From the NCBI RefSeq assembly GCF_963676685.1, contig NC_092351.1, positions 59,768,001-59,832,000 on the forward strand: a stretch of DNA of 64,000 bases, written 5' to 3'. Under the pieces are notes generated by a model, which saw only the letters and a program-made list of their open reading frames with translations, was not told where the DNA came from and did no database searches. Origin of the DNA: Mytilus edulis (taxonomy: Eukaryota). Position 1 is the first letter of the stretch, and each line of letters opens with the position of its first letter. A program made the translations under genes and the position numbers. Shown piece by piece: positions 18,676 to 63,030 of the stretch.

Positions 18676-19462
18676 ATGAAGTATTATTTGATTGGAGTTA
18701 CAACCCTTTTGGGCCTCGTGTGCGGGGACGCCGAAGATATAGGAACGGTGATCGGTGTCGACCTCGGAACTACTTATTCTTGGTGAGTAAAAATCATTTT
18801 AATAGTATAAAGGGATGACATTATATGTTTTCGTCATTCACTGAAACATTTGTGAAAGTATGTTCTTTGGTTCATAAAAAGTAATATATAATGTCTTATA
18901 TTTTTTTTAATTGTCCTGTACCAAGTCAGAAAAATGGCCATTGTTACTTCTATTATTATAGTTCGTTTCTGTGTGTGTTACATTTTAGTGTTGTGTTTCT
19001 GTTGTGTCATAGTTCTCCTCTTATATTTGATGTGTTTCCCTCAGTGTTTGTAACCCGAATTTGTTTTTGTTTTACTCAATCGATTTATGAATTTCGAACT
19101 CGAACAGCTGTATACTACTGTTGCCTTTATCTATATAAATAAAAACATACTAGTATTAACTAAAACCAACAACTTTAATTTTCATTTCATCTTTTGAATG
19201 TTATTTTCTTCACTTTTTTTTATTTACATTTTCACAAAGACTTACTAATGTCTTTATCACTTTTTAGTGTCGGAGTGTATAAAAACGGAAGAGTTGAAAT
19301 CATTGCAAATGAGCAAGGGAACAGAATTACCCCTTCTTATGTAGCGTTTACAGAAGACGGAGAACGTCTAATAGGTGACGCCGCCAAAAACCAACTGACG
19401 TCTAATCCGGAAAATACGATATTTGACGTAAAACGTCTGATTGTCGGGAATGGGATGCACAA
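18676..19462 (+). pseudogene. HSPA5: BiP/GRP78 (ER HSP70) 5' part, coding exons 18676-18782 and 19268-~19462; frameshifted and interrupted by an insertion
   Basis: Signal peptide followed by [64 protein letters not shown] 1-bp deletion at ~19443 hides IGREWDAQ, and homology stops abruptly at 19462. Confidence 0.9.
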
Positions 19463-19884
19463 GGATAATAGTTACGCTGAACGGTGCCCACTGGTCACCC
19501 TATAAATAGTACTCTTCTGTGTAGTAATATTGTAGTTCTAAAAATAGAAAACTAAAAATAGACAATTCTTCTTTCTATTTAGCAATACACCATAGATCTA
19601 GAACCTGTCACCGTCTGTATTATCTGTAAGTAAAATTAACATACCGAGCAATTGAATACAACGAGTAACACAAACTTAAGTTTAATTAAGTCATTCAAAG
19701 CAAAATATTCGTTTCATCTATTTTGTATGATTTGTCATTTGTGGTGACACGTTCTTTTAAATGTTCGAATCACAGACTAGAAGGAAATCTTCTTTTTTGA
19801 ATTTTGAATATTGAATTTGATTACATGTGGCCATCTTAAACAGAAATGGGATTTGTTAACCTCTGTTGGACTTTATATGCTAGA

Positions 19885-22800
19885 ATGGGGTAACTTCTGG
19901 TCACCTTATTCATATACTGGATTTGGTGACCTCTGGTCACCTTATGTAAATATTGGATTTGGTGACCTCTGGTCACCTTATGTTAATAATAGATTTGGTG
20001 ACCTCTGGTCACCTTATGTTATTATTGGATTTGGTTACCTCTGGTCACCTGATGGAGATTTCAGATTTGGTCATCTCTGGTAATTAACATCAACCTCTGT
20101 TGGACTTTATATGCTAGAATGGGGTAACTTCTGGTCACCTTATTCATATACTGGATTTGGTGACCTCTGGTCACCTTATGTAAATATTGGATTTGGTGAC
20201 CTCTGGTCACCTTATGTTAATATTAGATTTGGTGACCTCTGGTCACCTTATGTTATTATTGGATTTGGTTACCTCTGGTCACCTGATGCAGATTTCAGAT
20301 TTGGTCATCTCTGGTAATTAACATTTACATACAACTAGTTGATGTTTTTCATATCATTTGTAGAAAGTTTGAGACAATCAAAGGAAGAGAAAAAAGAAGA
20401 AGAACAGGTTTGATATACATTATGGGTTCAACAAGAATATAGAACATTATTACATTAAGTTTAATATATCGATAAAACTTTACACAATGAACATTATCTT
20501 TCACGATCATCTACAAACAAATCTAAGAAAAATCCTTGATCTTTCAAATATTGCCAAGAGCATGGACAGTTGATAATTTAGTCAATATTTCTACTTATCC
20601 TCATCAGATACTTTTGGATAAATAAAATTGAATTTATTAATACAATTATCAAATGTTTATCTTCTTTTTTCAGAAGTCCTCAGAAAATGTAGATGAGAGT
20701 GGTATGTATCCATTTTATTTATTGTATGAAACCTTTGATATGATGGAAACATACACTATGTTTATATAATGCTGCAACTATTTTCTTTTTGAACTGAATA
20801 CTTGCAATCGTTTCTAGTAAAATGGCCACTTAGGCTTGATTGAACAAATCATTTTTTGTTTCTTGATTACCTTACACAAATATTTAATTTGATTACATGT
20901 GGTCACCTTAACCAGAAATGGGATTTGATAACCTCTGGTGGCCTTAACATGCTAGAATGGGGTAACTTCTGGTCACCTTATTCATATATTGGATTTGGTG
21001 ACCTCTGGTCACCTTTTGTGAATATTGGATTTGGTGACCTCTGGTAATATTAGATTAAGTTACCTCTGGTCACCTTATTCATATATTAGATTTGGTGACC
21101 TCTGGTCCCCTTATGTTAATATTGGATTTGGTTATCTCTGGTCACCTTATGTTTATATCGGATTTGGTTATCTCTGGTCACCTTACGTTTAAATTGGATT
21201 TGGTTACCTCTGGTCACTTTATGTTAATATAAAATTTGGTGACCTCTGGTCACCTTATGTTAATATTGGATTTGGTTACCTCTGGTCACCTGATGCAGAT
21301 TTCAGATTTGGTTATCTCTGGTTATTAACATTTACATACAACTAGTTGATGTTTTTCATATCATTTGTAGAAAGTTGAGACAATGAAAGAAAAAGAAAAA
21401 AGAAGAAGAACAGGTTTGATATACATTATGGGTTCAACAAGAATATAGAATATTATTACATTAAGTTTGATATACCGATAAAACTTTAAACAATGAACAT
21501 TATCTTTCATGATCATCTACAAACAAATCTAAGAAAAATACTTGATCTTTCAAACATTGCCAAGAGCATTGACAGTTGATGATTAAGTAAAATAATACTG
21601 ATCCTCATAAGATACTTTTGGATAAATAAAATTGAATTTACTAATACAATTATCATATATTTATCTTATTTTTTTAGAAGTTTTCAGAAAATGTAGATGA
21701 GAGTGGTATGTATGCATTTAATTTATTGTGTCAAACCTTTAATATTATTGAAACATACATTATGTTTATATAATGCTGCAACTATTATTCTTTTTGAACT
21801 TAAAATGGCCACTTAGGCTTGATTGAACATATCATTTTTTGTTTCTTGATTACCTTACATAAATATTTAATTTGATTACATGTGGTCATCTTAATCAGAA
21901 ATGGGATTTGTTAACCTCTGGTGGCCTTAACATGCTAGAATGGGGTAACTTCTTGTCACCTTATTCATATATTGGATTTGATGACCTCTGGTCACCTTAT
22001 GTAAATATTGGATTTGTTGACCTCTGGTCACTTTATGTTAATATTAGATTTGGTGACCTCTGGCCACCTTATGTTAATATTGGATTTGGTTACCTCTGGT
22101 TACCTTATGCTGATTTCAGATTTGGTTACCTCTGGTCATCAAAACATAAGTCATGTTATGTTTTTTATCATTTGTAGGAAATGTAAGACAATCGAAGAGA
22201 GGAAAAAAAGAACAAGAACAGGTTTGATATGCATAACTGGTTCAGCAAGACTATAGAATTTTATTACATATTACATTTAAAATATTAATAGCACTCAACA
22301 GAATGAACATTGTCTATCCTGATCTTTTAAAAAACGAATCTTAGAAAATCATTGACCTTGCAAACATTGCCAAGAGCATTGACAGTTGATAATTTAGATA
22401 ATTTTTATTTATTAGTACTCAGAAAATGTAGATGAAAGTAGTATGTATGCATTTAATTTGTTATATATTATTCTTATATATGATGGATAAGTACATCAAG
22501 TGTGTATGATACTGAAACTATTATTCTATTTGAACTTAAAACTTGTTATCGATAGCTGTAAAATGGCTACATCGGTTTGATTGAAAAGTTCATTTTTTTT
22601 TTTGGTATATTTAATTGGCTACATGTGGTCAACTTTACCAGATATGGTATTTGAGTACCCTTGGTTACCTAAAGCAGATATTGTATTTAGTTATCTTTGG
22701 TCATTTTCTGTTGTTATTTGAATTCTCGTGGCACCTTTTGCAGATTTCGGATTTTGTTATTCACTGGTCAATAAAATTTACAAAAATTGGTCATATGTAA

Positions 22801-24835
22801 TCTTAGATGTATGATTGTTTTATTGGTTGTTGTTGGCTTTGAACTAGTGAGTACTCTCAGATCTGTACAAATGGTCTTTTTGTTGTTGGGATGTATAAGT
22901 GCCGAGCCACTTTCACTCTTTTTTGTTAGATGTTTTTCTATTTGCATCCAGGGACCTATATTAACTGTTAATATAGGCCCCTGTTGTATCCATCTTTTGA
23001 GTTAAACCTTTTCCAACTGATTTTTATAGTTCGTTCTTATGTTGTACTATTACACCACTGTCCCAGGTTAGGGAAGGGTTGGGATCCCACTAACATGTTT
23101 AACCTGACACATTATGTATGTATGTGCCTGTCCCAAGTCAGGATCCTGCAATTCAATGGTTGTCGCTTGCTGCTGTATTACATATTTGTTTTTCGTTCAT
23201 TTATATGGACATCAATTAGTCCGTTAGTTTTCTCATTGGCAATTACACCACAATTTCTTTTTTAAATGTTGAGTTTTTTTTATCATTTGTAGAAGATGTA
23301 AGAAATTTGAAGAGGGTGAAAAAAGAAGAACAGGTTTGTATATATCATTGGTTCAGCAAAAACAGAATACTATAACATTACATTTACTATATTAGTAACA
23401 CTGAACAGAAAGAATGAACATTATCTTCCATGATCATTTAAAAATAAATCTTAGTAAATAATTGAAATTGCTTACGTTGTCAAGAGCATTTACAATCGAA
23501 ATTAAGTCAATTTATACGTATCTTCATTAGGATAAATCAGTTGATTTCCTATACGATTATTTAATATTTAACTTCTTTTTTCAAAAAGAAGTCAAAAGAA
23601 AATGTAGATGAAAGTGGTAGGTATTCATTTTATCATTTTTTTTTTAAATATGATGGAAAGGTTCATTAAGTCTATAAGATACTGAAACTAAATTTCCATT
23701 TAAACTTAAAACTTGTTATCGATAGCTTTAAAATCGCTACTTAGGTTTGATTGAAAAAAAATCTTTTTCTTCATATATCTGGTCACCTTATGCAGATATT
23801 GGATTTGAGGACCTCTGGTCACCTTATGAAGATATTAAATTTGGTTATCTCTGGTCACCTTATGCAGATATTGGATTTTGGGGACCTCTGGTCACCTTAT
23901 GAAGATACTGGATTTTGTTAAATCTGGTCACCTTATGCAGATATTGGAATTGGGGACCTCTGGTCACCTTATGAAGATATTGGATTTGGTTAAATCTGGT
24001 CATCTTATGCAGATATTGGATTTTGGAACCTCTGGTCACCTTATGCAGATATTGGATTTGGGGACCTCTGGTCACCTTATGCAGATATTCGATTTGGGGA
24101 CCTTTGGTGACCCTATGAAGAAATTGGATTTGTTATATATCTTGTCACCTTATGCAGATACTGGATTTGAGGACCTCTGGTCACCTTATGAAGATATTAA
24201 ATTTGGTTACCTCTGGTCACCTTATGCTGATATTGGATTTGGTTATATTTGGTCACCTTATGCAGATATTAAATTTGGGGACCTCTGGTCACCTTATGCA
24301 GATATTGAATTTGGGGACCTCTGGTCACCTTATGAAGATATTTGATTTGGGGACCTCTGGTCACCTTATGCAGATATTGAATTTGGGAACCTCTTGTCAC
24401 CTTATGCAGATATTTGATTTGTGGACCTCTGGTCACCCTATGAGGAAATTGGATTTGTTAAATATCTGGTCATCTTATGTAGATATTTGATATGAGGACC
24501 TCTGGTCACCAAATGCAGCTATTGGATTTGGGGACCTGTGGTCACGATATGCAGATATTGGATTTGGGGACCTCTGATCACCTTATGCAGATATTGAATT
24601 TGGGGACCGCTGGTCAGCCTATGAAGAAATTGGATTTGTTAAATATCTGGTCACCTTATGCATATATTGGATTTGAGGACCTCTGGTCACCTTATGAAGA
24701 TATTAAATTTGGTTACCTCTGGTCACCTTATGCAGATATTGGATTTGGTTATATCTGGTCACCTTATGCAGATATTGGATTTGGTTACCTCTGGTCACCT
24801 TATGCAGATTTCGAATTTGGTTACCTCTGGTCATC
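19885..24835 (+). repeat. 30-bp minisatellite arrays (consensus GGATTTGGTGACCTCTGGTCACCTTATGYWRATATT) within ~0.8-1.6 kb higher-order units
   Basis: Arrays at ~19885-20320, 20950-21320, 21935-22140, 22620-22780 (degenerate) and 23778-24835; palindromic core GGTGACC-TCT-GGTCACC. Confidence 0.95.
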
Positions 24836-26884
24836 AAAACATAAGTCATGTTATGTTTTTTATCATTTGTAGGAAATGTAAGACAATCGAAGAGAAGGAA
24901 AAAAGGACAAGAACAGGTTTGATATGCATTACTGGTTCAGCAAGACTATAGAATTTTATTGTATATTAGTGAATACACTTGATTCTCAAAGAAAACAGTT
25001 TATGCTGGTTTAAACACATAAATTGATGATCGGGTTTTTTTTTAAAAGCATTCATAGAGTAGTAGGTAAGGAATGGTAAATGGGTCGAAAGGAACAATCA
25101 AACTGAAATTTGGAGAACAATCTGACAAAGCTGGGCAAAAAAAAAAAAAAAAAACCCCACCAAAAACCAGGGTGGTCTCAGGTTATCTAGAATGGTTAGC
25201 AGATCCAGCTCATTATGTGGTGCCCATAATATTGTTCATGCTTGAGTTTAGGATCCCTTGGTATATTACTGTATCATTAGAAATCATATGTCTACTGTGA
25301 ATCATATACATGTGGCTTTGCCAATCTGTAAGACATTTTTTTAAGTTGTAAGAACTTTCATAACGGTGCTTAATATGTCTTATTACATATATTTATTAGC
25401 TTAACTGCAGGAAAAATCACAACTGTATCTCACTTCATTTTCAGGTGATGTTGACTATCAAGTACAATCCTTAAATACTTTAACCGAGGATCTTGTCGAT
25501 AACGAAGCAACCAAAAAGGCAGTATGCCGAAAAATGAAAGGGACAGCTGCCCAAAAAAAGGGTGACACTGAAAAAGCTAAGTAAGTGTTTGAGGGGAATT
25601 CAATTATTCAGATTTTATGAACATTGGATCTATAATGGCTACAAAAGCAATCGCCTTCTTGACATCTTTATTACATACTAAGAGTATGGAATAAAATACA
25701 CAATAGAAAATACAAACATTTAGATTAACATGAAATATATAAAACATACATTTTCCAAATACCATGATCATTATGTATTCATCTTCTAAACAATGAATTA
25801 TGAACTGAGTATTCTCATCTATTCAATTAATTGCTTATCTGTTTCAATAATTATTCTAGACTAAATTTGTAACAAAATTCAGATCATAAATTCATAATCA
25901 AGTCTATAATGCAATCTATCTTTTTGCACTCGAGGTCTACAAATGTATAATTATATAGAATATGAATAAATGGGTTAACTGCGAATGGAAATGTGTAGTT
26001 ATCATTTTAATATACAGAGAAATGATACATCATAAGTAATTGAAAAAAAAACATGATTCAAACACAAACATACTTCCAGCTGTTCAAAAATAGATTTTGT
26101 TTGAATATAACTATATGGACACGGAGAATATGTCAAAGAGACAACAACCTGACCGAAACGTAAAAAACCAACTCAAGGTTGTGCAAGTTTCATATTTCTC
26201 TGTGTACTAAATAATAAACTTATCAAAGCAAACTGACATGCAATCAATCATTTTAAAATTATTAGCATCGTTGGAATACTGACTATAAAATCATATACAA
26301 TCTACTTCTTACTGGTCATAAACTTGAAACAATCCACACTACATTTTTATCGGAAAGCTAGGTAGAACAATTGACTTATAATTATTGATGTACAAATTAC
26401 TTTTTAATTTGGCCTTACAATTCGACTTTGTCCTATGTTTTATTGTTGATATGCATAACATTGCTTTTCTCATTTATTTTTCAACGGTTTAACATGCTCT
26501 ATTTTATTGTAGCTAGGAAACATTTAAAATTATTGAATACAATTTTTGTTATTAATGACATAAATTAAGCATTATAGTACCAACATATTAAAACATTTTA
26601 AAAAGAATATTTAAGTCAATAAAATAAAATGCATTCTTGTAAAGTCTTTTCTTTGTTTAGATTAAATGATTCTTATTAAAACTAGAAGAATTAAAACGGT
26701 GTCATTATATAAAATTATGTAGGTAAAGAAATGTCCTGTAATAATAAAATTGCTGTCTTAAATTATTTTTGCAGAGAAATTATTGGCCATGTTCTAGGCG
26801 AACTAAATAAAACAAATGTTAACAAGGCAATGCATGGGAAAGATTTTGAGGCCTTTTGGAAGACAACAGAGACAATGCTGCCAG
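20364..26884 (+). pseudogene. Putative MULE accessory gene made of repeated micro-exons: A 20364-20407, 21371-21413, 22178-22221, 23293-23333, 24873-24916; B 20674-20701, 21678-21705, 22416-22440, 23589-23616; then 25411-25580 and 26775-26884
   Basis: Each segment is bounded by a pyrimidine tract + AG and a GT, and the phases chain 1-0, 0-1, 0-2, 2-1. It encodes charged repeats such as ESLRQSKEEKKEEEQKSSENVDES. Copy A2 is disrupted, and neither start nor end was found. Confidence 0.65.
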
Positions 26885-29800
26885 GTAATGATTTATTAGA
26901 CACATCACACGTATTATCTTAACTTAAAACATATTTGATCATTTGCTTAAAAAATATAACCTACTTGAGACAGCAAACAGACCTAGACCAATGTAATAAT
27001 TAGCCAATGTATCTGCTTGACAAAATCTTCAGTAGGAATAAGTATTTGTTGTATCAAATTATATACATTTGGAAACATCAGTATCTTTGCAAAACATTTC
27101 AAGAGCAAACTGTATATGTCCTACTTTTAAAGCCTTTAGGCACCAATGTAACATATAAAATTTTTGAATGAATATCAAGAAAAAGCAGTTTTTCAAAATC
27201 AGTATAATATTTCATTATTTTTTTCATTGAAATGGTTTACGAATGGATCCTTTCTTTCTGTGGGTAGATTTGAAACTGCCATCCACATTAACTGTACTCC
27301 CCCGTTTTTTTTTCAGAACACACTTTCGGCTAACTGAATAGTCATGATCAGTTTTTGAACTTTTGGATTTTCTGATTGGAAACAGCGGTTGTTGCTTTCG
27401 CTTTCTTGTTGTTTTGGAAAAGTTGATTGTCTTACAAATATATAATGCCGTTGTGAGTGCTTGTAAAATAGTTTTCTTTTTTTTCACGTCAATTGTCTGA
27501 AAATTTTTATTGTTTACATATATATTGATTTCCTCAATTTTTCTTTTAATAGCCTGGTCGGTTGTTTCTTTGTCTTCCTTTAATTGTTGTCTTGTTTCAT
27601 CAATTGAAGTAGACTCTATGTCAGGTGATGGAACTACCATTTTTGCCACCATCACACAAACACAATGTATACCATGGCTATTGGCAAAACATGTACATTT
27701 GAATGAGGTCAAATTAACAACTGGACAAAACCTCTACCTGGTTGTTATCTCTGTCATAAAAATATTGTTCTGCATTAAATACATTCATTGCTTCTGATCT
27801 GCGCTCTACAGTGGGGTCGATGTTCCTTTTAGAAGCAATCAAATCAGCTAAATGAACATGCTTACACATTCCTAAAAAATAGTAGAGAATGGAACATAAA
27901 TAAATGCATTGTACCCTTATGGTTTACTTTCAATTGTACAAACTTTAAACAAAACCACCAATCAACATGCAGTAAAGATTTACTTAAATTGGATCGCATC
28001 GTTTTAGACAAGTTGATGAGGCAAATGATTATTTGCACTTGTATAACCTGATGACGGTTGATAACGTCTTGTTGGAAGACAACAAAACCGAGGAGACTCA
28101 TAAAACCAAAAGACATTTACAACAACAGTAAAAAAACAATAATAAACAACACGAACTCCACTATAAACCTGAAGTAAAATTAGGTGCCCAAGAAGGGTAA
28201 GCATTTCCGCGACGATTTACGGCACCCGAAATTAATTATCTTGATTTCAACAATTCATACTTGATGGTGTACTTTTAAACATTGTTGAACTGACTTAAGA
28301 TAATAAAAAAAAACTTACCTCTTGTTGTTGCAGCTGGACAGTTGCACACTACATTGACAATGTCCACATTATAAATCGTCCCAAATGCTGTCTGTGATGG
28401 AACAGTGCATACTGTGGAAGAAGTCCATTGCACAGTTTGGTCGAGTCCTGCCTTGAGCATATTCTCTGCTGTCAATTTACTTTTGTCTTCCCTTTGTCCT
28501 CCCATATTTTTCAGGCGACCAATATTTTCGAGTTCATCTAGATAGCTAAAATTACGATGTTTTTTATTTATTTTTGATTATGAAAACATAATTCAAAGAT
28601 CTATTAATAAATTATTTCTTCAAAAATTGAATTTACAGTATTTAATACTCAATGTATTTGCATCTTAAATTGAAATGATCCTTCTAATTTCAGACGATTC
28701 AAGTGAACGATAAGAAGAACAGGATTGTGACAAATTTAAACTTACTTACTCATAAAACATAGTTACATTTCCATGGAGCAGAATAAGTAAGTCCTCTACT
28801 CTGCTATTGGCATACCCACCAAGGAAATGGTATTTCATGCCCAGGAAAAACCTGAAAACGACAAAATGTTAATGACTTTGAATTTATGATTTATGTTTGA
28901 ATGTACAAATAGAAAGTACATAAAATTATAATGTGTATACATTTGAATGTTATAAGTAGCATTATATTTTTTCTTTTAAAGTTCTCATACACATCAGGTT
29001 TTGCTAGACTACATTTTTCATTTTGTCTGCTTTTATGTAATTATCGACTTGCATTGACGATTATGATATTTGTATTAAATTTGCATAACCCTATCATGAA
29101 AGAACGGCAATAATCTCTCCGTATAGTTAAAAAATGTATAGTTTATATCATTTTAAGTCTTTGGTTACCCACGAAGAAGTAGGATTTAGCCAAAGTGTTT
29201 ATCCACAAAATAAAATATAGTTAGTTACTATTATCAAACAGATAATAATTAGATGATGCTTAAAATTTCGATCTAGTAATATATAAGGTGTATAGTAATA
29301 CAATGCATTAATAACCTTTCAACTAAGTTATTTGTATCTTAATCTTCATAAAAAAATGTCTTCCATAGTTGGCCCATCGACATCCCCACTTGTCAGTACA
29401 CCAGTTGTCTAACAAGTAGTCTGTTATTTGTTTGGAATGCATCTTCTCTTGCAACATTTGAACTTGTTGAGACAAGTCTTCTTTCTGATGAAAAATTATA
29501 TTGACACATTTTTTTTGAGTATAGAAACAGAATTTATAGATTAAACACGCATGCATGTACTCATAAGCATTGTACATTTATAGGTAAGATCTTTAAATCG
29601 CATTAAGCAACTCTTTGTACTTTCTAAATTATTTTACTGATATAATTCAATAGAGATTCATTGCTATATGTTTTACTGTTTTTTTTTGTTTTTTTTTTTT
29701 TTTATCTTTTATCAACCAAAATTCATTGATTGTAATTTTTTATTATTATTATTGCGTTTTAATTCACTCATTATGAAAAATCTTGTTGATATGATTTATC

Positions 29801-31629
29801 ATCTTTTGATATTTAAACAATTACAATATTGGAAAAAGAGAAAAAGATCCCACTAATGTCTCATTTCTACAGGGATTTTTCTTATAATATTAACATATCA
29901 ATAACCAATCGTGTTTCATTGTGAGGCAACAAATTCGTGATTTATTTTTAAAAACAATGTTTCACATCCTCTGCATATAAGACTGTTGTAAAAAAAATAT
30001 CAGATTCAGGTCCAGTTATACTATGTAAATTAACATTCACCTAGTACATATTTAATATTCGAATACATTATTTGAATTTGTCAGGACCAACTCAAAATTA
30101 TTGACCAATTTAAAAATTATTCTATTTCACTGTGGTATCATAGGTTCATTATATTTTATTTGTCTTAACTAGCACGTTTGATTACCCTGGTATATATTTT
30201 CATAGTTCTGATATAGTCAATAACTTTTTTTTTGGTTTGTGCGTGCATGGGTCCTGATACACCAGATTCTTTTTTATTCAAAAATATGTACACAGCCTGT
30301 AAACCAAATCATTTATATTTAGTTCATGTCTTAAAGATTTCTTGCTAATAATAATTTAATATTGTCTTGAATATATCATGACTAATTATTTTTCAACAAG
30401 ATAATATTTGATCTATGAGTATTAATGCGAAAGAGTTGATTTATTAAATCAAAACTGACCCCAGGCTTATAAACAAAAACAAGATATAAAATGTTAAATC
30501 CAATGCAATTAATACCTATTGATTCAATAGAGTGAAATTTCACAGAATAACTCTCATTTAATAACTGATTTTTTTCCCATAAAGGTAAAATGTATGATAC
30601 ATATATTGAATGATATAATACCTGTAAAACATGAAACCAGCAAAGTAAAACGGAGCTGTTTGGGAATACTTCATTAATTGCGCTGATTTCTTTGGTACCA
30701 TAAAAGATCTAGTAAACAAAATGTAACACTGCAGTATCAACAATTTGTATCTTTATCTCATATTGGTTTTATTCTATAATACTATTTGTTAATTTGTAAA
30801 TAATTATGTAAATTCTTATTTTTTTATATCAATTAGATTCTCAATTTTTGATTGAAAAGTTTGGAAACAAGCCCAACAAAGCTTTAATTATTATGTTATA
30901 TGTAAACCTGACTATGAATTAATCTTACATGCTTTGGTTTTATGGCCTTCCATAGATCACTCTCAAAAGTTTTTAAGGAAATTGATGTTTTTGTAAGTTT
31001 CATTAGTCCATGAGATAAATATTATTATGCAAAATTATTTATCTAATATTCTTTGCCAAAATTCAACTTAAATTGTTGTTGACCTTAATTGTATTAATTT
31101 TGATATGCAGGAAAAAATGTTTCTTTAGATGAATCTTTCATTGCATTGTCTATTGGTCAATTGTCAAATAACTATCACTGCAAGAATATGTGAATAATGT
31201 CATAGTTTAACCTGTAATTTTTACAGACAAATTAATTAAAAGATATAATTGAATGGCTTTTATTTATCTTTTATATCCATATCAGATTTGATGTTGACTC
31301 CGAATATTGTAACTAATTGTAAACAAATAATAAGACGAAAATGAAAAGTGTTAATAAGCAATGTTATTATACTTCAAGAGTTTTTTTCCTATATAAAATA
31401 CATGAAATAGTTGTGCTATTTCCTTCTAAAGACAATTTGCCAGTTAATAGTTTCAAAGACTATTTACCCGGTGAATAGTTTTGTAAGTAGATTTCCCGAA
31501 CTTTTCTAACTTTCTTTTCATTGGTCAAAAATGACGTCATTTATCATTCGCGATTCTCTGAGTTTTTCCCATAGTCATGTAAAACACTGAAATATCGAAA
31601 ACAGGAAGACGACATCAGACGATCAAAAC

Positions 31630-33551
31630 ATGGCAGAAACAAGCAGATTTGCATCTTTAGAACCTGATGATCTTAGTAAAATATTGAATGACAGAGATTC
31701 GAAAAATACTAAAAACGTAATAGGAGTATCAAAAAGGATAATAGGAGATTATTTGCTAGAAAAAGACGGTTTATATAAAACTATACAAGACTTAGACCAG
31801 GCCAACACAGAAGACGTCGTCAAAACACTCCGACAATTTTATGTTGAGGTCAGAAAAACAGATGGTACATTATATGCTAAAAAATCTTTGATTACATTAA
31901 GATTTGGCTTACAAAAACATTTCGCTGAAACAAGAAAACAAGACATAATCAACAATGAAGAGTATAAAGCTGCAAATGATATGTTCAAAGCTATGATGGT
32001 GGCGATGAAAAAAGAAGGGAAGGCCAATGTCAATCACAAAGAGCCTATTTGTCCTGAAGACTTACAGAAATTATATAAACATGAACAATTTTCCCTTAAG
32101 ACTCCCGAGGCATTACAGAAGAGAGTGTTTTTTGAGTATTTGTATTACTTCTGTAATAGAGGCAGAGAGAATATAAGAGATGTACAAAGGGACGATTTCG
32201 AGTTAAAAAGAGATGCAAAAGGGCTGCGGTATGTCAGAGTTAAAGTTGTACGGCAAACCAAAAATCATAGAGGGGATGACTTTACAGATGTTGATGATAA
32301 AGACGGCAGGATGTATGAAATTCCAGGTAAATTATTTGTTGTTATAAATGTAATAGATAAATAGATTAAATACATGATGCTGAAACCATGTTTAAGAAGT
32401 TTACGTTGAATACATTCTATAATGAGTTTTGCACATATGAAGTTCACATACGCGTCGCCAGTAAAACTGCATTTGCGACCGTTAAATTGGCAATTGACAG
32501 TGACACAACTACAGTACTGTTATTCCTTAATTTTACCATTGTTCACTTGACTCACTGATGAGACACATTATTTACAAGCACATGTACATGTATCTTTTTC
32601 AATGAGTTACACCAGTTGACCAGAGGTCAATCAACTTAACTAACATCCTCAAACATTGGTTTTTACTATGATTAATAATGTAACGTACATCAGCATTGTG
32701 AGATAGGAAATTATGGGAAATTGTAAGTTGTTTATTTCTTAAAACTGTAATTAAAAAAAATCAAAACTCTCTCAAAAATTGCAGGAACAATGTATAAAAA
32801 ATCTTATAAACACACCAAAAAAAGAATTTTTCTGGTAAACTTCAATTATGTATTAAAAGTGTCTATCCTTTTTTTTTCAGGAAGTGCTAATTGCCCTGTT
32901 ATATCTTTCACCAAATATTTTAGTAAGCTGCATCCAGACAGGACAGAGTTTTGGCAGCGTCCAAAGCGTGCATCCAAAACTACAGAATCCGCCGATATAT
33001 GGTATGACAATAGTCCAGTAGGAAAAAATACTCTTGGAAATCTAATGGCTAAAATAAGCGAAGAGTGTGATTTGTCTCGTAGGTACACAAATCATTGCAT
33101 ACGCAGTACATGCATAACTGTCTTGGACGAAGGGGGTATTGAAACTCGACACATTATGGGACTTAGCGGCCACAAGTCGGAATCAGCAGTAAAGTCCTAC
33201 TGCAAGCGTCTGAGCAGTACTAAAAAACATGAAATGTCAAACATTCTAAGTGAAACTATTCAAAGTGCAACAAGTTTAAATGGTGAATTATCAGAAAAGA
33301 GAGTTAAAACTCAGGATACAACAACATCAATATGTGATAATAGCGTTGACTTACTTTCTAATGATATTGAATTTGATCAAATACTACAGGACATTTCAAG
33401 CTATGAGTCAAATCAGACAAACATTCAAAATATTATTCCTCCTTCATGTAGTTCAACAGTAGGTGTCAATAATAACTTCCGTTTCCCATTGTCTGGGTTT
33501 TCAATTCAAAACATTAACAATTCCAATATACATTTTCATTTTGAGAAGTGA
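31630..33551 (+). CDS. Crypton tyrosine recombinase (DUF3504/KCTD1-like), 2 exons 31630-32326 and 32881-33551, 455 aa
   Basis: NRGRE (R), QTKNH (K), CPV, TNHCIRST (HxxR), SGHKS (H) and VKSY (Y); phase-1 GT-AG intron; no stops. Confidence 0.9.
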
Positions 33552-33851
33552 GTAAATTCAGTTAGTCAGTAACTTTAGTGAGTCAATTAATGTTATTATT
33601 CGATATGTTTCTTGTTATATTTTGTTGAAAATACAGTCATTATTAAATCATACAATGCTGTTTACTATTTTATTTAAGATACCATATGAATCAGGAAACT
33701 AAATTGGTAAATATTGTCATGAATGGTCCTGGAATACTACTGTGGTTGTACTTGTACAATGTGCAAATAGTATGGTATAGATCTTCTAATTTACATTTGA
33801 CAGAAGGTGTTTGAAGATTTCTTTGAAAGTTGTGTTGTTCAGTATAATAAA

Positions 33852-33995
33852 ACACCTAATGACTGGGTGTGCGGGTAATAGCAAGTTTGTTGTCCCTTCG
33901 CATACCAACTATTGCCCTCGGCTTCGCCTCGAGCAATAGTTGGTATCTCAGGGACAACAAACTTGCTATTACCCTCACACCCAGTCAATAGGTGT
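33852..33995. repeat. ~68-bp-arm subterminal inverted repeat (hairpin with GGCTTCGCC loop) at the Crypton 3' end
   Basis: ACACCTAATGACTGGGTGTG...CACACCCAGTCAATAGGTGT; the arms are nearly complementary. Confidence 0.9.
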
Positions 33996-36086
33996 ATACT
34001 ATTGAATTCGAAATATTGTCAACTTTGATACCCACAAACCTTGGACAGAAATCAAATCCCTGATTTTCAGCCGTAGTCTTCAGATATCTCAGAAATATTT
34101 TGACAACTTCACCAGTATCATCTGACAAGATACAGTACGAAAGAGGAGTGCCCCGGCCTTGCTGTTCATCTCTTGCAACAAGAGCATAGAATGAATAACC
34201 ATAGGCAGTTAATCCTTAAACAAACAAAAAAATATGCTGTAAGTTTATTGTCACACAGTTCATTTTTTTTTACACGTGTTAATATTGTAAATTGAAATTT
34301 CCATGATTATATATAAGTATAATTATACCTTTATATGTAGCATCTAAAAACACCACATTTTCTGCTAGTTTCATCATTCTCTTTCTTTGTGCTTCATTCT
34401 GGTAAATGATTTCTAATGGATGTACTCCCCTACAATGTAAATGTTACATATTTAATGTCCAGAAGTATGAGTATATATTTTATGTTGAAATCATGTGCAT
34501 TTAATGAAAGAGAAGACGACAAACTAGCTACATTGTACTCATATTAAATAACCTCAATGAAAACTGAAAAGACAAAAATGTAAAATCTATTGACAAAATA
34601 TATGACTTGTGAACAAGTGTAGCACTAAAAACACTCAAAAGGATAAAAACCAAAAATACAAAGCATCTATTATAAGAAGTCAGATATACTACAGAAAACT
34701 CCTCTGTACAGCTCTCATTGAAACATTTTACGGACAAAATCATATACGAAATTGGACAGACGAGTACTATAAAAAAAATTCATTTGAACATAAGGCAATC
34801 CAGTCATGTCTGAAGAACAAAACTGGGTATCAATCAGTAATTTCAGAATTACTCTTTATCAGCATTATGCTTATATCAGTCATTAAAATTTACAAAAGTA
34901 CATTATTATATAAGAATAATTACTCTTTCAATTCTTGGTAGAAAATTATCTTTTCCTTCAGTATGTGTGTGCATAACTCGTGTACAGCTACAGCATCATT
35001 CTGGTGAATTCTAAAACAAATGAGGAAATATAAAATTTAACCAACTTTTGTAGAAATATCATAGATCAATACAAGTACTGACATGTACAGAACCAATGTC
35101 AACAGTACATCTGTATAATTTGACCAGAAAACACCAAAGTTCATTTACTGTGTAAAGTGCATAATTACAATCAGATTGGTAAAAAGATTAAATGGTGAAT
35201 AAAGGTCTAAATATCTATATAAAGTAATGATTTAAACAGACGACCATTGGGTTTGCATACAGTGCATCAGTTTAAATGACCGCAAACCAAAGTCTGTATC
35301 TATGAATGTCATAGAGGTAACCAACGTCAATTCCAGTGTAAGGTACTAAATACCAAATGCTCTTTACATTTAACTTTACCAAAGTATGTAGATGTAACAA
35401 GATGGAACCAAGGATATACTTTGTGTGAAGCTATCAATATTTTTAAATTGTCCAGATGTGACCAAAGTTGCGGTGAACAGTGGTAACCAAAGTCAATATA
35501 TGTGTACGGTTTCAAAAGGAGTATAGATTATACACATATCTAAAATAGACATAGGAAACACAAGTATGTTTAAGGTAGCCCTAGTCAATATCTGTGTATC
35601 ATTATATATATGTTTAAGGTGACCAGAGTAAACAAATTGGTGAAAAGTGATTATCAAATTCTGCAAACATTTAAGGGTACAAGTGGCGACCCAGGTCCAT
35701 ATCTGTGTTAATTAACCAGAGGTTACCAAAATCTTTATATTTTAAGTGTTATCAGAGGTAGCAAAGTCTTTGTCTGTGTACTTCAATATAAAGATTTGGT
35801 TCAAGTAATCAGAGGTAACTTAAGTCCGGGCAATGGTTATTTTTTGATGACTGGATACGTAGAGACAAAGCCTGTTTCTTTGGATTTTTGACAAGAACAA
35901 AGTAGTAAGTACATATTTTAAGTAAATCTTTTGATTATGTTTTGATACCTTTTATCCATTTTGTAACGTTGACATATATTCTTAATGTCAACTGGTGTCA
36001 GATAGTATCTGCTATCGTGCACATCAAAATGCCTTTGAACTCTAGCCCATTTCCATGCTTTGCACAATATTTCCATTGGTTTTTTC

Positions 36087-36186
36087 NNNNNNNNNNNNNN
36101 NNNNNNNNNNNNNNNNNNNNNNNNNNNNNNNNNNNNNNNNNNNNNNNNNNNNNNNNNNNNNNNNNNNNNNNNNNNNNNNNNNNNNN
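36087..36186. other. Assembly gap (100 N, true size unknown)
   Basis: Run of exactly 100 N. Confidence 1.
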
Positions 36187-36295
36187 CCATGATTTGAAAG
36201 AACAGAAGAAAGCTTTAGAAGACATTGTTAATCCAATTATAAGTAATATATATCAAGATTCTCCTTCTTCGGAGGGAGAAAAAGAAGAATTGTAA
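36187..36295 (+). CDS. HSPA5: BiP/GRP78 C-terminal fragment ending in KEEL
   Basis: HDLKEQKKALEDIVNPIISNIYQ...GEKEEL* matches the BiP lid end and an ER-retention signal. Confidence 0.85.
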
Positions 36296-42228: not shown

Positions 42229-45200
42229 TTACAGGGAATCCTCATATTGCCTGGCGTTATTTAGATGATAATGACAACGAAAGTTAAGGAATAAAGCATA
42301 CTGTATAGTATGAATACTACACATGTCATTCATTACTTCCTTAAGAAGTTCGTTAGGTATTAATACAGAGTTCTGTTCGAATAACATAACATCTACTAAC
42401 ATTATTCTCCACTGTTGGACAATGCTTTTCTTCTGGATTGTTTTCAGTTTAAGTAATCGGTGATCTATATCCATCACATCCATGGAACGGAACAGTTTTC
42501 CGGGAGGATATTTAGTTATAGAATACTCGATGATGCGTAACGCTTTATTGTATTGCTTTGTCTTGTAGAAAAACGAAGCTAACATCAGCCATCCAGATAC
42601 AGCATCGTGATAGATATTCTGTTGTAAAATACTAATACATGATCTATACTGTGTGTATTGGTATTTATTACTGCACGTAATGGTCAGTGGTAACGTCTGG
42701 GCACGTATTGAACACACCACTGACATAAAATATGTGTATAAGTATTTTATTGAAGATTTCTGACATGAAACAATCAGTTGTATTCCTCTTTGGAATTCGT
42801 TCTTAATAATATGAGTGACCAAAATATTTAAAGACTGCAATTGGAGCGAATTAATTATTGTTACAACTTCAGGCACATACAACGAATGTGGTTCGATGTG
42901 GAAATTCTGCATTGATTTATGAAACTTAGATATTTGATCGGAAAATAAAATGCATCGCCAACCATAACTATGCAGGGTAAATAATTTCTCTAATAGTATT
43001 TCACGAGCACGACCCTCTATCTTGTTCTCAAACATGTTGTTTTCTGGAATGAAATAATGCAGGCAAACTGCATAGTCAACACAATAAATCAGTCGCCTCA
43101 AACATTGCATAAAACAAGGTATAAGACTGAAAGGTTTCCATGCATGTTGCGGTAGTTCTTCAGATATCCAGAAAATAATTATTTTCAGAAAATATGAACA
43201 GAGTAAATCTTTACATTCAGAGTTAGCAGCAATAACATCTTTCAAGAGAATTTTTAAGAGGGCATAGCATAATAATTGAGTGTGTGTAAACGTATTTATG
43301 AGAAGTTTTCCACCAACTGAAAAGGATATTCGCCATTCAAGATGTTCTTTTGGTGACCCTTTTACTCCGATCGGTACAAAGAGTACCCCATGTTCTATAA
43401 TACGTTGTTTTACATTATAACTTGGCCACTGATTGCTTGGTCTGGTTATCCATTCTGTTGCAGGTGCTACCCAGGTTTTACAACGAAGGCATAAGGCTAT
43501 ATCCATCTTTTCATAGTTGTCAGATATACACGGTCCATGAATAGTAAGTTTTTTCTTATCAACCAAAAGGCCTTGTCTAAATATAGCGCTCGAAAAATAA
43601 TATTTACCATTTACTTCTTCAAGAGTTCTATGGGACATACCACATGTATTTTCGCAATACAATTTAGTAAATCCAGGCTTTACATCATCTGTATCCATTG
43701 TCCAATATCTAATTCTTGGATGTGAACTGGATTTCACATCTTGAATCTTCATATCTTTGAGCACACACATAATATCTAAATCGCTGCCTCGCATCTCAAG
43801 TCCTTCCCCGAAACTACCACTTGTAATAAATGTCATCTTTTCATCACTAGACAAGTTATCGCGGACGGTGTTAATCAATCTGAGTTGTTTAACATGATCT
43901 TCTGTTCCAACTATATTCTGACACATAAAACGATACAGCGCTATTGATATGTTTTGTGCTACGTTGTCTGTAATAAGAACAAAAATCTTGATTGTTAGAA
44001 AAATAAATAATCTTAAAATTAAGTTGAAGGTAGCATTTCTGTAAATATTGACAATGGAATTTTAAAAATAACTCCTTATACAACAAAACCTGTACCACTT
44101 TTACTATGAAGTTTCGAAAAAATCTTAAAATGAAAAGCTCATATGCACTACTATGTGCTTCAAACGTTAAAATATAGGGCTGTGCAGCATATTTTCAACT
44201 ATTAGATGCCTTCGAACTTATAAAAGAGTTTAAACTTTCTGTACTACCCCTACCTTCATTTAGGGGCTTCCTCAGAATTCAAGGCTGACTCTATAATGTT
44301 TTACTTATACTGGTAGCATTCCCAAGTTATGTCTCTATGAGATGAAACGTAGAGATCATATCTGGGAACCAGTACCTAAACGGAACAATTAATCTATGAA
44401 TATTATACATTCCCCAAAAGACGCGTTCTTGATGAAAAAGCTGTATATACAAAGCGAAATTGAAATAAAACAAATGATGATTTGAAAGATAGATTGAACG
44501 TAAACATATAAAATGTACAGGCTTCTCTTAAAAGGTAAATCGAGTACATTTGATATATGACATGTAAAAACATGTATTTGAATAAAAGTAATCTGGAATA
44601 AAACTGTTATCCGCGTCATGATGCACAAATTCTTATCTAATTAGTTAAGTGTATGCTCCCTTTTGCTTTTTCATAGGGTTGTAAAACAGTTCACCGAAGC
44701 ACTTCATATTAGAAATCAGCGCAATTGGATTTAAGAATTTCAAAAAGCAGCATTGAATTCATATACTAAATTTATTCATTCATTGTGTATTAATTTACGT
44801 TTTTTGATTGAGTTAAGTCTGCCAATTGATATTTTATCGTGTGTTTTTCTATGTTGTGATGTTATGCTTTTGTTTCAGAAAAAGGGAGAAGGTTTGGATC
44901 CATTAAAATGTTTAATCCCGCTGCAAATGTTTGCACCTGTCCTAAGTCAGGAATCTGATGTACAGTAGTTGTCGTTTGTTTATGTAATTTATATACGTGT
45001 TTCTCGTTTCTCGTTTTTTATATAGATTAGACCGTTGGTTTTCCCGTTTGAATGGTTTTACACTAGTAATTTTGGGGCCCTTTATAGCTTGTTGTTCGGT
45101 GTGAGCCAAGGCTCCGTGTTGAAGGCCGTACATTGACTTACAATGGTTTCCCTTTTTATTAAATTGTTATTTGGATGAAGAGTTGTCTCATTGGCACTCA

Positions 45201-51515: not shown

Positions 51516-52298
51516 ATGTCGTTATCAAAAAGTTTACAAAATACGGTACAAGTTGAAAAATCTTGTGAGGTATGCGAAGTTAGTATATAAATACAGTGGA
51601 AGTGTTTTGATTGTAAGCGATATATGTGCAGTGCCTGCAAAGAAACGATCCACCCAAAATTTAAACATGCTGACAAGCACAAAATCGTAAAAACAAAAGA
51701 TATAACCGAGGATGATTTGGAGGAAAAGCCTGATTTAACGTCCATTAGCTGCACAATTCATGACGATAAGTTATGCTGTCTTTATTGTAAGGAATGTTGC
51801 GAAGCAATTTGTTCCTTGTGTGTTACACAAACACATAGCAAGCATGAAATGATTGAATTGAGTGAGGGCTATGATATTTGCATTAAAAGACTTCAAATGT
51901 TCACCATGCAGATTGACGAGAGAATAAGATTCATTAAGTTATCAGAGACTGGTAGATATTTAGACGGAAAAAAGAAAATGGAGATGCAAGAAAGAGTACT
52001 TATCAAGGCCATCAAAAGTCATTCAGAGATACTAAACAGGGAATATGACAGGCAATGGGATAATTTCAATGACACCATCAGTAAAGAGGAAGCTGTAGAA
52101 ACAGAAACTAAACGTATTATATTCAATTCAGCTGTCAGAGCAGCTGACGGAAACGAAACATTCAGCGTTGCCAGAAAAGGAAACATATTATTGGCTGAGG
52201 AAATGACAAGAATCAACCTTGACATTGAACGTCCACAAAGTTTCGTTCCCAGATCGATTTCGACAACGTCCATCGAATTAGTTCATGGGTGGCTAAAG
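51516..52298 (+). CDS. Tandem B-box + coiled-coil (RING-less TRIM-like) exon with an in-frame TAA at 51588-51590
   Basis: MSLSKSLQ..CEVCE..*IQWKCFDCKRYMCSAC..H..H (B-box 1) and CTIH..CCLYCKECCEAICSLCVTQTHSKH (B-box 2), then a helical region; ends at an AAG|GTAAGT donor in phase 0. Confidence 0.85.
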
Positions 52299-52419
52299 GT
52301 AAGTTATATCAAACGTTATAACTGCAGAAAATCAATATGAAATAGAAAAAAATAATTGGTCATGGATACGTTTGTAAGTACAGCTTGACATGATACAGTT
52401 TAACAAATTGTGCACCTCT

Positions 52420-53250
52420 TCTTGCCGACTTGTTTCTTATTATTATGAGACTGACTTCATACAGAAACTTCTTAGGAAGAAAGATCAGACTTTAGCAATA
52501 TCCTTTAACTCTACTTTCCGCTATATAGATGATGTACTTTCACTAAATAATTCAAAATTTGGTGACTATATTGAACGCATCTATCCCATCGAACTAGAGA
52601 TAAAGGATACTACAGATAAAGTTAAGTCAGCCTCATATCTTGACTTACATTTAAAAATTGACAATGAGGGTCGGTTGACAACAAAACTTTACGACAAAAG
52701 AGATAATTTCAGCTTTCCAATTGTGAACTTTCCATTTCTAAGTAGCAACATTCCAGTAGTACCTGCGTACGGGGTCTATATCTCCCAATTGATATTCCCG
52801 TGCTTGCATTTTCTATCATGATTTTTTTATAGAGGGTTGCTGCTCACAAGGAAGCTATTAAACCAAGAGTTCCAAATGGTGAAGTTGAAATCATCCCGTC
52901 GTAAATTTTACGGACGTCATCACGAGTTGGTTAACCGTTATGGAATAACCGTTTCTCAAATGATATCGGATATGCTCCTTACGTCGTAACTACAATCCCC
53001 TTCCCTTTCATGAATGTCACATACCGAATTAGACTATTAACCGGATTTCTTATCACATAAGCAACACGACGGGTGCCACATGTGGAGCAGGATCTGCTTA
53101 CCCTTCCAGAGCACCTGCGATCACCCCTAGTTTTTGGTTGGAGGTACGTGTTGCTTATTCCTTAGTTTTATATGTTATTTAATGTGTACTATTGTTTGTC
53201 TGTTTGTCTGTTTCATTTTTAGCCATGGCGTTGTCAGTTTATTTTCTTTA
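52420..53250 (+). mobile_element. 5'-truncated Penelope-like retroelement (RT C-terminal part + 3' tail)
   Basis: FRYIDDVL, SYLDL, LYDKRD and AYGVYISQLI, with a frameshift afterwards. Tail remnants also occur at ~3135, ~25155 and ~28145. Confidence 0.8.
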
Positions 53251-55032: not shown

Positions 55033-56439
55033 TTTTTTGTGAAATCGACTCCAGATGTCTGTCCCCAGGACAATAGATTAAAAACAAATTTGCCGTGAAG
55101 CGACAAGCTCGAGAGTAAAACTTAAAAAAACCAAAACTATATAACGATTTATAGAACTTAAATAAAACAGCCGATACGCCTGAAATTGACAAAATGTACT
55201 ACTTTAGCATGTTTTGTAACTTTATAGTTTCAAACTTGAACCATGCATTAATTGTCTTTGTAATTCCTTTTTTACTAAAAAAAAGCTTGATCAATCTGAA
55301 GGATTCTTCAGGATTCATACGAAAGAGGGTTTTTTAAACACTGAGATTAAAAATGATAAACTATCATAGATATTGGATTTCGGTAACAAAAGAATATTGA
55401 TTTGTTGCAGTTGTTGGTTCAGTGTGCGTTATTGATTTCCCATAGACTGTAATGGTAACATTTTCCTCTTTAGCATAGTTTATATCGTAAACTTGGATAT
55501 GAATAATGGCTCGTGTAGAAGCCGATATATGTAAACATATGTAGGTGTCGTCTGTTTATGTAATTCGTACGTGTTTTTGTTTCTCGTTTCTATATAGATT
55601 AGACCGTTGGTTTTCCAGTTTGAATGGTTTTACACTAGTAATTTTTGGGTCCCTTTATAGTTTGCTGTTCGTTGTGAGCCAAGGCTCCGTGTTGAAGGCC
55701 GTACCTTGACCTATAATGGTTTACTTTTATAAATTGTTATTTGGATGGAGAGTTTTCTCATTGGCACTCATACCACATCTTTCTATATCTATATGCGGTT
55801 GAATTTGCGGGTTACGAATTGTGATTTTTCCCGTAAAGAAGCTTACCCCAAAAATCCTTTCGTGATACGGCTCCTCGTGGTGAACAGTCCCATTTTTAAC
55901 ACAATCAGTTAATTGCAAATTTAATAAATTGAATATATTTTTTCTATGGTCCTCTCTTTTTTTTTCTAATCAACACAATATGTTAAACTCAATCACTTAA
56001 AAATAGAAACATATCTTATATTACTACAGAGAGATCTTTTGTTTACGCACCACTTTGGTTCCTCAATTTGAAACGCATTAGGGATATTGACCCAGTTACG
56101 GCTTCTGAGCTGTTTGGGACAATCTGAACGAGTTTAATTGTTGTTTTTTTAAGTGATATAATTTGGATTTAAATCTAATTTGGATATCATGATTGGTTTG
56201 ATATCTGTTGACAACAACTCAAGCTTAATTAAATGCAACAAATTTTGCAAAACTGATACAATTGCAAATTGCCAGTACAGCCCCCTGTATATTGTATTAT
56301 GGATTGCATCTATAAATAACTATGTTCACAATTACCTAAATAATACTCATGATTCACTAATCAATTACAAAATGTTATGCTTATATGAATCGACTGTTAT
56401 CATTTGATATAAATGGTCTGTTATTTCGTAATTTTTCAG

Positions 56440-62400: not shown

Positions 62401-63030
62401 TCTGCTTACAGTTCTACGGTTAGAACTGATTTGGACAGCTCTACCTAGAACAGTTTTAGACAGTTCTACCCTAGAACTGATCCTGACAGTTCTACCCAGA
62501 ACTGATGTAGTCAGTTCTACCTAGAACTGATCCTGACAGTTCTACCTAGAACAGTTCTAGGGTAGAAATGTTCTAGCTAGAACTGTTCTAGGACAGGTTA
62601 GAACAGTTCTATGACAGATTATTCTGACAGTTCTAATGAGAGGTTAGAAGTGATCTCCACTGTACTTCATTGTACTTTGAGGAAATATACACTTTTTACT
62701 CAATTCGATTAAATCTGATTTAATTTAGCAAAGCTTATTTGAACAACTTATATTGAAAATGTCTCTGATAAAAAAAAAAATATATAAATATTGCAGATAG
62801 AATTTACAAATGACACTTTGCTAGCAGAATCAAGGAGTTATACGGGATGTAAATTAAAGACAATGAAAGCTTTGGATGTTTTTGCAGCTCTTATTAGTTA
62901 CATCAAAGGAAAGGTTCCAATACAGTTACGGAGAACCGAAGAAATAAACATCAATATTGAGGACATTTATTGGGTGATTACCATACCAAAAATGACAGCA
63001 GAACAGTTCATTCGTGATGCTGTAACGAAG
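56440..63030 (+). CDS. HSPA12-type HSP70 nucleotide-binding-domain exons (56440-56742, 62797-63030); the gene continues beyond the window
   Basis: PVVVAIEIGT (divergent phosphate-1), SCVLL..HSIGYQA, WYLFE, MKALDVF and IYWVITIP..AEQFIRDA; AG/GT boundaries in phase 0. Confidence 0.8.
58600..59115 (+). ncRNA. Non-LTR retrozyme: ~1.45 tandem units with two type I hammerhead ribozymes (58685-58726 and 59040-59081)
   Basis: CGTCA-CTGATGA-GTCT(tatgt)AGAC-GAAA-C(gcgc)G-TC^TGGCG; predicted cleavage after 58721 and 59076, giving a 355-nt monomer. Confidence 0.9.
59131..59260 (+). repeat. 26-bp tandem repeat (TTCTACGGCTAGAATTGATTTATAAA) x5
   Basis: Seen directly in the sequence. Confidence 0.9.
59757..61260 (+). 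repeat. ~260-bp tandem satellite, ~6 copies of varying divergence
   Basis: GCATGTCCTCTTT-like anchor at ~59757, 60029, 60287, 60546, 60792 and 61072. Confidence 0.85.
61341..61655. mobile_element. Non-autonomous hairpin element (possibly Crypton-derived)
   Basis: Long internal inverted repeat at 61341-61510 (AATGACTGTAA..TTACAGTCATT) followed by a unique tail. Confidence 0.5.

Follow-up and report, generated by a model that had tools for sequence, protein, structure and literature searches.

Giant Mutator-like elements in the mussel Mytilus edulis with a second gene for a predicted Ulp1 protease and an AP-2-like domain

Closest described systems

The element considered here belongs to a family of Mutator-like elements (MULEs) in the genome of the mussel Mytilus edulis and lies in a stretch of 64,000 nucleotides (NC_092351.1, positions 59,768,001 to 59,832,000, forward strand; hereafter the window, with its first letter as position 1), where it interrupts a BiP/GRP78 gene from 19457 onwards and runs into an assembly gap. 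Taken together with two sister families, it resembles the Arabidopsis VANDAL elements with VANC or KIU (Kaonashi) genes, as these are described in PMC5735166 and PMC13317346, in its accessory gene, Ulp1 domain, intronic repeat motif and repeat-rich linker. VANDALs, however, are plant elements without terminal inverted repeats (TIRs) and their VANC resembles MAIN (PMC13547354), whereas the mussel elements are bounded by TIRs and combine an AP-2-like domain with a PHD-type finger. According to the same sources, the motifs to which VANC binds, and through which it de-silences elements, lie in tandem repeats within introns (PMC5735166), and an Ulp1 domain is part of some VANC genes (PMC13317346); the function of Ulp1 in transposons is given as unknown in PMC13317346 and is treated as speculation in PMC2836005.

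The mussel elements differ from maize MuDR in their TIRs of 43-61 bp, many introns, interleaved genes and length of 48-65 kb. The maize element has its mudrA and mudrB genes in a convergent layout. Two genes between TIRs, a 9-bp target-site duplication (TSD) and a second gene on the opposite strand are shared with MuDR as described in PMC6446971; the mussel second gene (Ulp1, PHD-type finger and AP-2-like domain) is set apart from mudrB by its domain content, and no likeness to MURB is claimed. Ulp1, PHD and OTU domains are already reported from animal and plant DNA transposons (PMC2836005, PMC6446971), including Hydra and lancelet MuDR elements with Ulp1, Hydra MuDR-6_HM with OTU, and Ginger1. 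In Ginger1, as described there, Ulp1 or OTU (not both) is fused to the transposase, whereas the mussel elements have OTU in the transposase gene and Ulp1 in the gene on the opposite strand. Rehavkus also combines a 9-bp TSD, a minisatellite near the TIR and a PHD finger, but is described as having one ORF (open reading frame) with the PHD finger in the transposase (PMC6446971), unlike the mussel elements, which have a second gene, fingers of the SWIM type and arrays along each arm.

The C-terminal domain of the second gene is compared with TFAP2 (PMC10450164; PDB 8J0K and 8J0Q), with which it shares a colinear DNA-binding and helix-span-helix region, a predicted dimer and the CC-N3-GG palindrome of its likely target, but from which it differs in about 20% identity, a shorter span, the absence of R254/R255, an outer base that is A/T instead of G/C and its position behind a protease in a transposon. 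The available parts of PMC2836005 and PMC6446971 mention no AP-2-like domain in animal MuDR or Ginger1 elements, although Repbase entries may differ. Likewise, neither a transposon with an AP-2 domain nor a mollusc MULE of this size was found to be reported in literature searches or in the available parts of PMC10027918 (0 AP-2 terms), PMC13359780 and PMC6431247, while Repbase or supplements may hold relatives; the arthropod MULEs described in PMC13359780 measure 1.4-10 kb. The reading slightly favoured here is that of a giant MULE whose second gene joins Ulp1, a PHD-type finger and an AP-2-like dimer, which would bind the element's own arrays and strip SUMO to counter silencing.

Sister elements and the predicted second protein

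Two full-length sister elements were identified, one of 47,984 bp with a 43-bp TIR and the 9-bp TSD AAATTTTCT (C14:33921904-33969887), the other of 64,527 bp with a 61-bp TIR and the 9-bp TSD ATAATTTTC (C11:3309610-3374136), sizes that take in arrays and nested DNA. Each carries two genes on opposite strands that start near the termini, which is the MuDR-type layout. This layout and the intron positions are common to all three families, whose proteins are 35-60% identical, and the proposal of the initial annotation that a mollusc MULE family carries its own accessory gene is thereby supported. The plus-strand gene of the sisters consists, in order, of a non-coding exon, an ATG exon, the Ulp1 exons, a C4HC3 finger, a linker, a 90-aa exon and the exons termed C and D, while the 5' exons of the transposase lie near the right end. 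OTU-protease exons are found upstream in the sister transposase genes (L111:2910-3987 and L119:5064-5913, both on the minus strand), one of them scoring 24.3 bits in Pfam, above the cut-off, and we infer that they are part of the transposase ORF.

In both sister families, ten Ulp1 exons with GT-AG ends join into stop-free ORFs. The spliced models contain the motifs His-Trp, Asp-Pro and Gln-x-Asp-x3-Cys-Gly followed by the C4HC3 pattern, with the His, Asp, Cys and Gln residues in the correct order in both, which we take to be the catalytic triad and the oxyanion residue. The Atlas comparison gives a feature score of 0.93, 25 of 30 matches in the Peptidase_C48 set and a TM of 0.73 to a SENP2 cluster, values high enough to name the domain, and the second gene of the sister elements is predicted from these features to encode a SUMO-removing enzyme. 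The Ulp1, DNA-binding and dimer exons show a dN of 0.38-0.59 with synonymous sites at or near saturation, as does a transposase exon, and the second-gene exons are under purifying selection. It is probable that a single continuous protein runs from Ulp1 to the AP-2-like domain. The suspicion of the initial annotation that the cargo holds a Peptidase_C48 domain holds for the 5' end of the sister second genes (with Pfam scores below cut-off) and fails for the copy in the window.

The 90-aa exon and exons C and D very probably form a TFAP2-type DNA-binding and helix-span-helix region by remote homology. In the Atlas, the domain scores 0.93 with 201 shared features, 30/30 matches to TF_AP-2 and a TM of 0.54; Pfam TF_AP-2 gives E values of 1.3e-4 and 1.7e-4 for two relatives; the best two PDB entries in a profile search are TFAP2A and TFAP2B, and the top five Foldseek rows are TFAP2A. 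The alignment used (A1) holds 20 of 22 representatives, P0018 and P0020 having been left out as apparent repeat noise, and relatives of the domain occur at 33-72% identity in other contigs. With the mussel's own AP-2 the alignment is colinear and scores 5.5 bits, against a best of 5.4 in 2000 shuffles. A homodimer model scores 0.84 (best control 0.11) with pLDDT of at least 86, a contact agreement of 89% and an interface formed mainly by residues 176-266, at a mark reached by 7/16 solved animal homodimers and 0/30 eukaryotic single chains, though the score may reflect likeness to solved TFAP2; the dimer through the C-terminal helices is found in this model as a prediction only. Of the DNA-contact residues of TFAP2 (R217, S222, S247, R254 and K257), the positions of R217 and K257-S258 are kept in two families, the third having Lys/Asn. 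Single pieces searched against PDB by phmmer gave chance matches only, and a metagenome scan with P0010 gave 188 pattern matches, none confirmed. No Pfam or Atlas match to a VANC-type (MAIN-like) domain was obtained for the C-terminal domain, which thus may act like VANC without being one. The host AP-2 genes lie away from the element, at C5:89.23M (L182) and C1:6.91M (L183-L186), one being whole in a 417-aa frame and one intron-split.

The candidate target of this domain is a motif of the intronic arrays. Among 35,608 spaced patterns common to the three families, ACC-N3-GGT ranks top at 23-26x background (470 kb), followed by GGT-N-ACC, with 43 ACC-N3-GGT sites in the window copy, 55 in the C12 copy and 131 and 157 in the C14 and C11 elements; site counts within arrays are not independent, and the three families share an ancestor. 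Most of the 43 sites in the window lie in the intronic tandem arrays at 19886..24830, with a unit of about 36 bp and the core GGTNACC-N3-GGT. The units differ among the three families (about 36, 46-47 and 39/45 bp), so that the motif has been retained while the units otherwise changed. Intronic arrays occur on each of the two arms in all three families, and in two families the arms carry them in opposite orientation: in C12, all 15 forward sites are on the left and all 32 reverse sites on the right, and in C14, 47 are on the left and 65/66 reverse sites on the right. TFAP2 is described as requiring a CC-N3-GG palindrome and as binding GCC-N3-GGC with an essential 3-bp spacer, an aCC half-site being about 19-fold weaker (PMC10450164); by this geometry the arrays would suit a dimer of the AP-2 type for which the outer base has shifted. 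A CC-N3-GG site is also present in the TIRs of two families, the background being about 1 per kb. Binding of the element's arrays by the AP-2-like domain is considered reasonably likely.

The window copy, its relatives and its neighbours

The interrupted host gene is a BiP/GRP78 paralog, with exon 1 at 18676..18782 (+, assigned from sequence), exon 2, split by the element, at 19268..19456 (+, from an HSP70 match in Pfam and paralog comparison) and the end of the last exon (..EKEEL-stop) at 36187..36295 (+, from the paralog C-termini). An assembly gap (36087..36186) covers the right arm, the right TIR and most of BiP, and exon 2 has one base fewer near 19444, just before the insertion, than the two paralogs. 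The genome has three BiP-like genes, the others being at C8:59.868M and C2:79.013M; a paralog lies about 80 kb downstream of the window copy on the opposite strand.

A 206-nt query from the left end gave 40 genomic matches, ten of them near-full-length at 90-100% and four paired with an inverted end. All ends examined begin GCACA and have 43 bp in common, which moves the terminus from 19463, where it had been placed, six bases to the left, the GCACAA belonging to the TIR. From comparison of the family copies, the left TIR (+) occupies 19457..19499 and begins GCACAAGGATAATAG. By analogy with three TSD-bearing copies, the expected left TSD is GAATGGGAT (19448..19456) in place of the GATGCACAA given before. 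The inverted partner and TSDs of about 9 bp anticipated by the initial annotation are present at other loci, 9-bp TSDs, within the 8-11 bp of the MULE superfamily, flanking 3/4 two-ended copies, while the fourth has none and a gap near its right end. Searched for with the expected TSD, the right end of the window copy gave 0 matches, and the TSD pair was seen only in other copies. Of 13 regions around weaker terminus matches, 12 are without exon matches and one (C7) is a family copy. Terminus-like sequence also occurs three times at a spacing of about 1.45 kb at C13:34.47M (L072), and at 12 loci (L014-L024, L027) it is embedded in a separate repeat whose flanks are nearly identical.

The intron-rich minus-strand DDE/SWIM transposase gene, annotated with at least nine exons, has ten visible exons from 36086 to 27224 (27224..36086, -) encoding a DDE core, a CWFH motif and two SWIM-type fingers, and four of its introns were confirmed as CT..AC joints in contigs of sequencing runs. 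A C/DxxH motif in the DDE transposase is the motif rule of MULEs. The motifs FLDAT, MVDRD, CWFH and NNLVER are kept in the C12 copy and the sister families; the nearest database proteins are from Mytilus, and Pfam MULE matches P0005 (E 1.8e-4) and one window exon (0.0046), both below the cut-off. In the window the gene is broken at about 30695, 29337 and 27730: the second catalytic Asp is gone through a short deletion, a stop precedes the catalytic Glu and the last exon has a frameshift. With these lesions, and with a second gene that has lost its start and the exons for protease and DNA binding, the copy in the window is a dead, internally deleted derivative and not autonomous.

The plus-strand second gene begins 70-130 bp inside the left end with a TATA-like box (TATAAA at 19501) and a non-coding exon 1 (19501..19625, +, with the start probably near 19530); the motif TG[CT]GTAGTAAT also marks the left end of each sister element. 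The GT donor at 19626 had been proposed correctly, the joint from 19625 to 20674 being seen in 1/4 runs. GT..AG joints in run contigs lead from exon 1 through repeated mini-exon pairs of 28 and 41-44 nt (20364..24916, +), which encode a charged linker (KSSENVDES / NVRQSKRGKKEQEQ) and whose repeats recur in P0011, to exon C (25445..25580, +), exon D (..AMHGK..MLP; 26775..26884, +) and a terminal exon (DDSSER-stop with a long 3' untranslated region (UTR); 28694..31250, +, end approximate), so that the plus-strand gene is spliced. The contigs come from three runs presumed to be RNA, from three studies, and are 88-99% like the window, thus representing the family and not this copy; they are unstranded, with transcript direction taken from splice signals and few spliced raw reads. 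Exons C and D encode the first and the last helices, respectively, of the AP-2-like dimer region, and the DNA-binding exon that precedes exon C in relatives is absent. The speculative suggestion that the MHGK..MLP exon precedes an Ulp1 domain was therefore right as to Ulp1 in the family lineage, at the 5' end of the sister genes, and wrong as to its placement. Ulp1 downstream of exon D was ruled out, as the frame closes at DDSSER-stop, and a protein from the spliced second gene of the window was also ruled out, its longest ATG frame being 58 aa in two RNA-guided paths.

The splice from exon D skips the two final exons of the transposase (28319-28545 and 27224-27871) and lands at 28694, a joint seen in 3/4 runs (sides of 88, 27 and 27 nt), and one contig with this joint continues unspliced to 30201 across transposase exons. 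The last intron of the second gene thus contains the 3' end of the transposase gene, and its 3' UTR is antisense to catalytic transposase exons. The terminal-exon acceptor and early stop are present in 7/7 copies listed. The two genes, described before as converging at about 27 kb, are indeed on opposite strands, but interleave and overlap in antisense instead of simply meeting. In the sister families such interleaving is a candidate, the annotated end of P0008 lying elsewhere. Such an antisense arrangement might link the two genes to each other or act as a source of small RNAs.

The association of the two genes extends beyond the window. Two copies without gaps, one of 13.4 kb on C11 and one of 19.7 kb on C12, have both between TIRs with TSDs, as do both sister elements, and exon D is paired in the same way with a transposase exon at 41-59% identity on C14, C7 and C11. 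All nine other left ends of the window family that were examined lead from intron 1 directly into repeat modules; the copies examined have no OTU exons and also lack the transposase 5' exons, and the window family here consists of deletion derivatives. Its 90-aa DNA-binding exon persists in a C11 fragment and in an M. californianus gene model, the latter linking it to window-family repeats. Degenerate, unassigned remnants lie at C1:62.87M, C11:51.54M and C8:42.64M. Diverged short copies at C11:33.47M (L009) and C11:32.33M (L010) have a left flank in common, which suggests a segmental duplication. Four further two-exon OTU loci (L189, L190, L191 and L193) show neither exons of the element nor a TIR-TSD pair, and have 0-2 sites in every 4 kb; they were therefore excluded from the elements and are a possible host source of the OTU exons. 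Inside the elements the observed/expected CpG ratio is 0.33-0.46, compared with 0.72 for the background, which may reflect past methylation.

Nested in the window copy, and overlooked in the initial annotation, is a TATT-flanked Crypton-type element (31369..33999, +) with a two-exon, stop-free 455-aa tyrosine-recombinase ORF; towards its 3' end (33852-33995) it contains an internal inverted repeat of 46 bp. This 2.6-kb insertion is missing from three family copies spanning its site and looks young; short terminal direct repeats fit Cryptons as described in PMC3212892. Elsewhere in the window, Pfam identifies an intronless Mab-21/cGAS-like ORF at 42232-44061 (-; Mab-21 and Mab-21_C above cut-off) and a B-box ORF, the first of a plus-strand set at 51591-52337, 52378-52818, 56413-56754 and 62788-63045. 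The others of this set are presumably a reverse-transcriptase-like fragment and HSP70-12-like exons (no Pfam match), and the exons at 2.6-10.0 kb (+) are taken from their translation to be alpha-galactosidase / N-acetylgalactosaminidase-like.

Proposed role and rival explanations

In the proposed mechanism, the full second protein would bind its own arrays as a dimer and bring the SUMO protease and PHD-type finger to the chromatin of the element, where removal of SUMO would counter host silencing; deleted copies, which keep TIRs and arrays, would be mobilised in trans and perhaps released from silencing in the same way. Anti-silencing as the outcome, for which the chances are put at a little under even, is proposed by analogy with de-silencing by VANC and with SUMO-dependent piRNA silencing, SUMO being described as needed for piRNA-guided silencing in Drosophila (10.1101/533091). 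More tentatively still, the elements might be an independent animal counterpart of VANC/KIU, in which an AP-2 domain was captured, its site shifted to ACC-N3-GGT, a SUMO protease fused and the site amplified in the element's introns, yielding an eraser of SUMO-dependent silencing directed by sequence, next to an OTU deubiquitinase in the transposase gene.

Several results weigh against this proposal. The best Pfam TF_AP-2 score is 22.3 bits against a cut-off of 23.4, with 3/23 aligned sequences matching; hhalign gives the AP-2 match a probability of 11.6%; the Foldseek E values are 0.2-0.7, and the VIA Z of 3.9 (rmsd 2.7, 69 aligned) is tied with unrelated folds. The DNA-binding exon folded alone (pLDDT 62) has no Foldseek match and a Z of 2.9, R254/R255 of TFAP2 are not conserved, and one family has Asn in place of the base-reading Lys257. 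The Ulp1 pieces, at 15.2 and 11.8 bits, do not reach the Pfam cut-off, and a genome-wide PF02902 search did not list the sister loci. Protease exons gave three matches genome-wide, none in the window family, and no Ulp1 exon was found in the window element or in any examined copy of its family. Neither an RNA nor a database protein runs from Ulp1 into the AP-2-like part across the unchained linker exons, and both complete sister copies are damaged (frameshifts in C14, a stop in C11). The premise of SUMO-dependent silencing would have to carry over from Drosophila to the mussel. Finally, a second palindrome, GGT-N-ACC, which overlaps ACC-N3-GGT and occurs in the TIR of the window family, is as strongly enriched (22-47x), and the arrays may serve the transposase.

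The last point leads to the improbable alternative that the arrays are Foldback-like subterminal repeats bound by the transposase, the AP-2-like protein acting on other targets, either its own promoter or host genes, and the match in geometry being due to chance. The single ancestor of the three families, by which the motif may be one event, and the frequency of CC-N3-GG in the background would fit this, but the sister families have lost the right-hand GGTNACC and keep ACC-N3-GGT, which is unexpected for a pure GGTNACC repeat. A fairly unlikely explanation, though a better one, is that the second protein does bind the arrays, as a transposition cofactor, while Ulp1 and OTU would have the transposition complex or repair factors, and not silencing, as their targets. 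Maize MURB and Spm TnpA pair ends or aid insertion and repair, and the opposite orientation of arrays on the two arms and the CC-N3-GG sites in the TIRs of two families are consistent with such a role; however, introns hold most of the array sites, at distances of many kb from either end, as in the VANC case, and a PHD-type finger points to chromatin. A function of Ulp1 and OTU in DNA repair during transposition has been proposed (PMC2836005).

That the AP-2-like part forms a unit apart from Ulp1-PHD, or that the two are passively captured fragments with no role in the element, is very improbable: public gene models do split the two (P0007, P0008 and P0009) and window-family copies spread without Ulp1, but strand, order and exon sizes are the same in two families with saturated synonymous sites, where passive cargo would decay, and the spread copies, being also without transposase 5' exons, were moved in trans. 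Independent insertions or misassembly are hardly credible, for despite the gap at the right end of the window copy, which was searched for and not found, and the one two-ended copy without TSD, both genes lie between TIRs with TSDs in the gap-free C11 and C12 copies and in two sister families; the claim of one two-gene element thus survives this test for the family.

If the favoured reading of an array-binding SUMO protease is true, the second gene would give an animal transposon an anti-silencing protein of its own. It would also mean that an AP-2 domain is carried by a transposon and that cut-and-paste elements reach 48-65 kb. As the protease is accompanied by a candidate targeting domain and a matching candidate site, the question of what Ulp1 does in transposons becomes one of a binding or tethering test.

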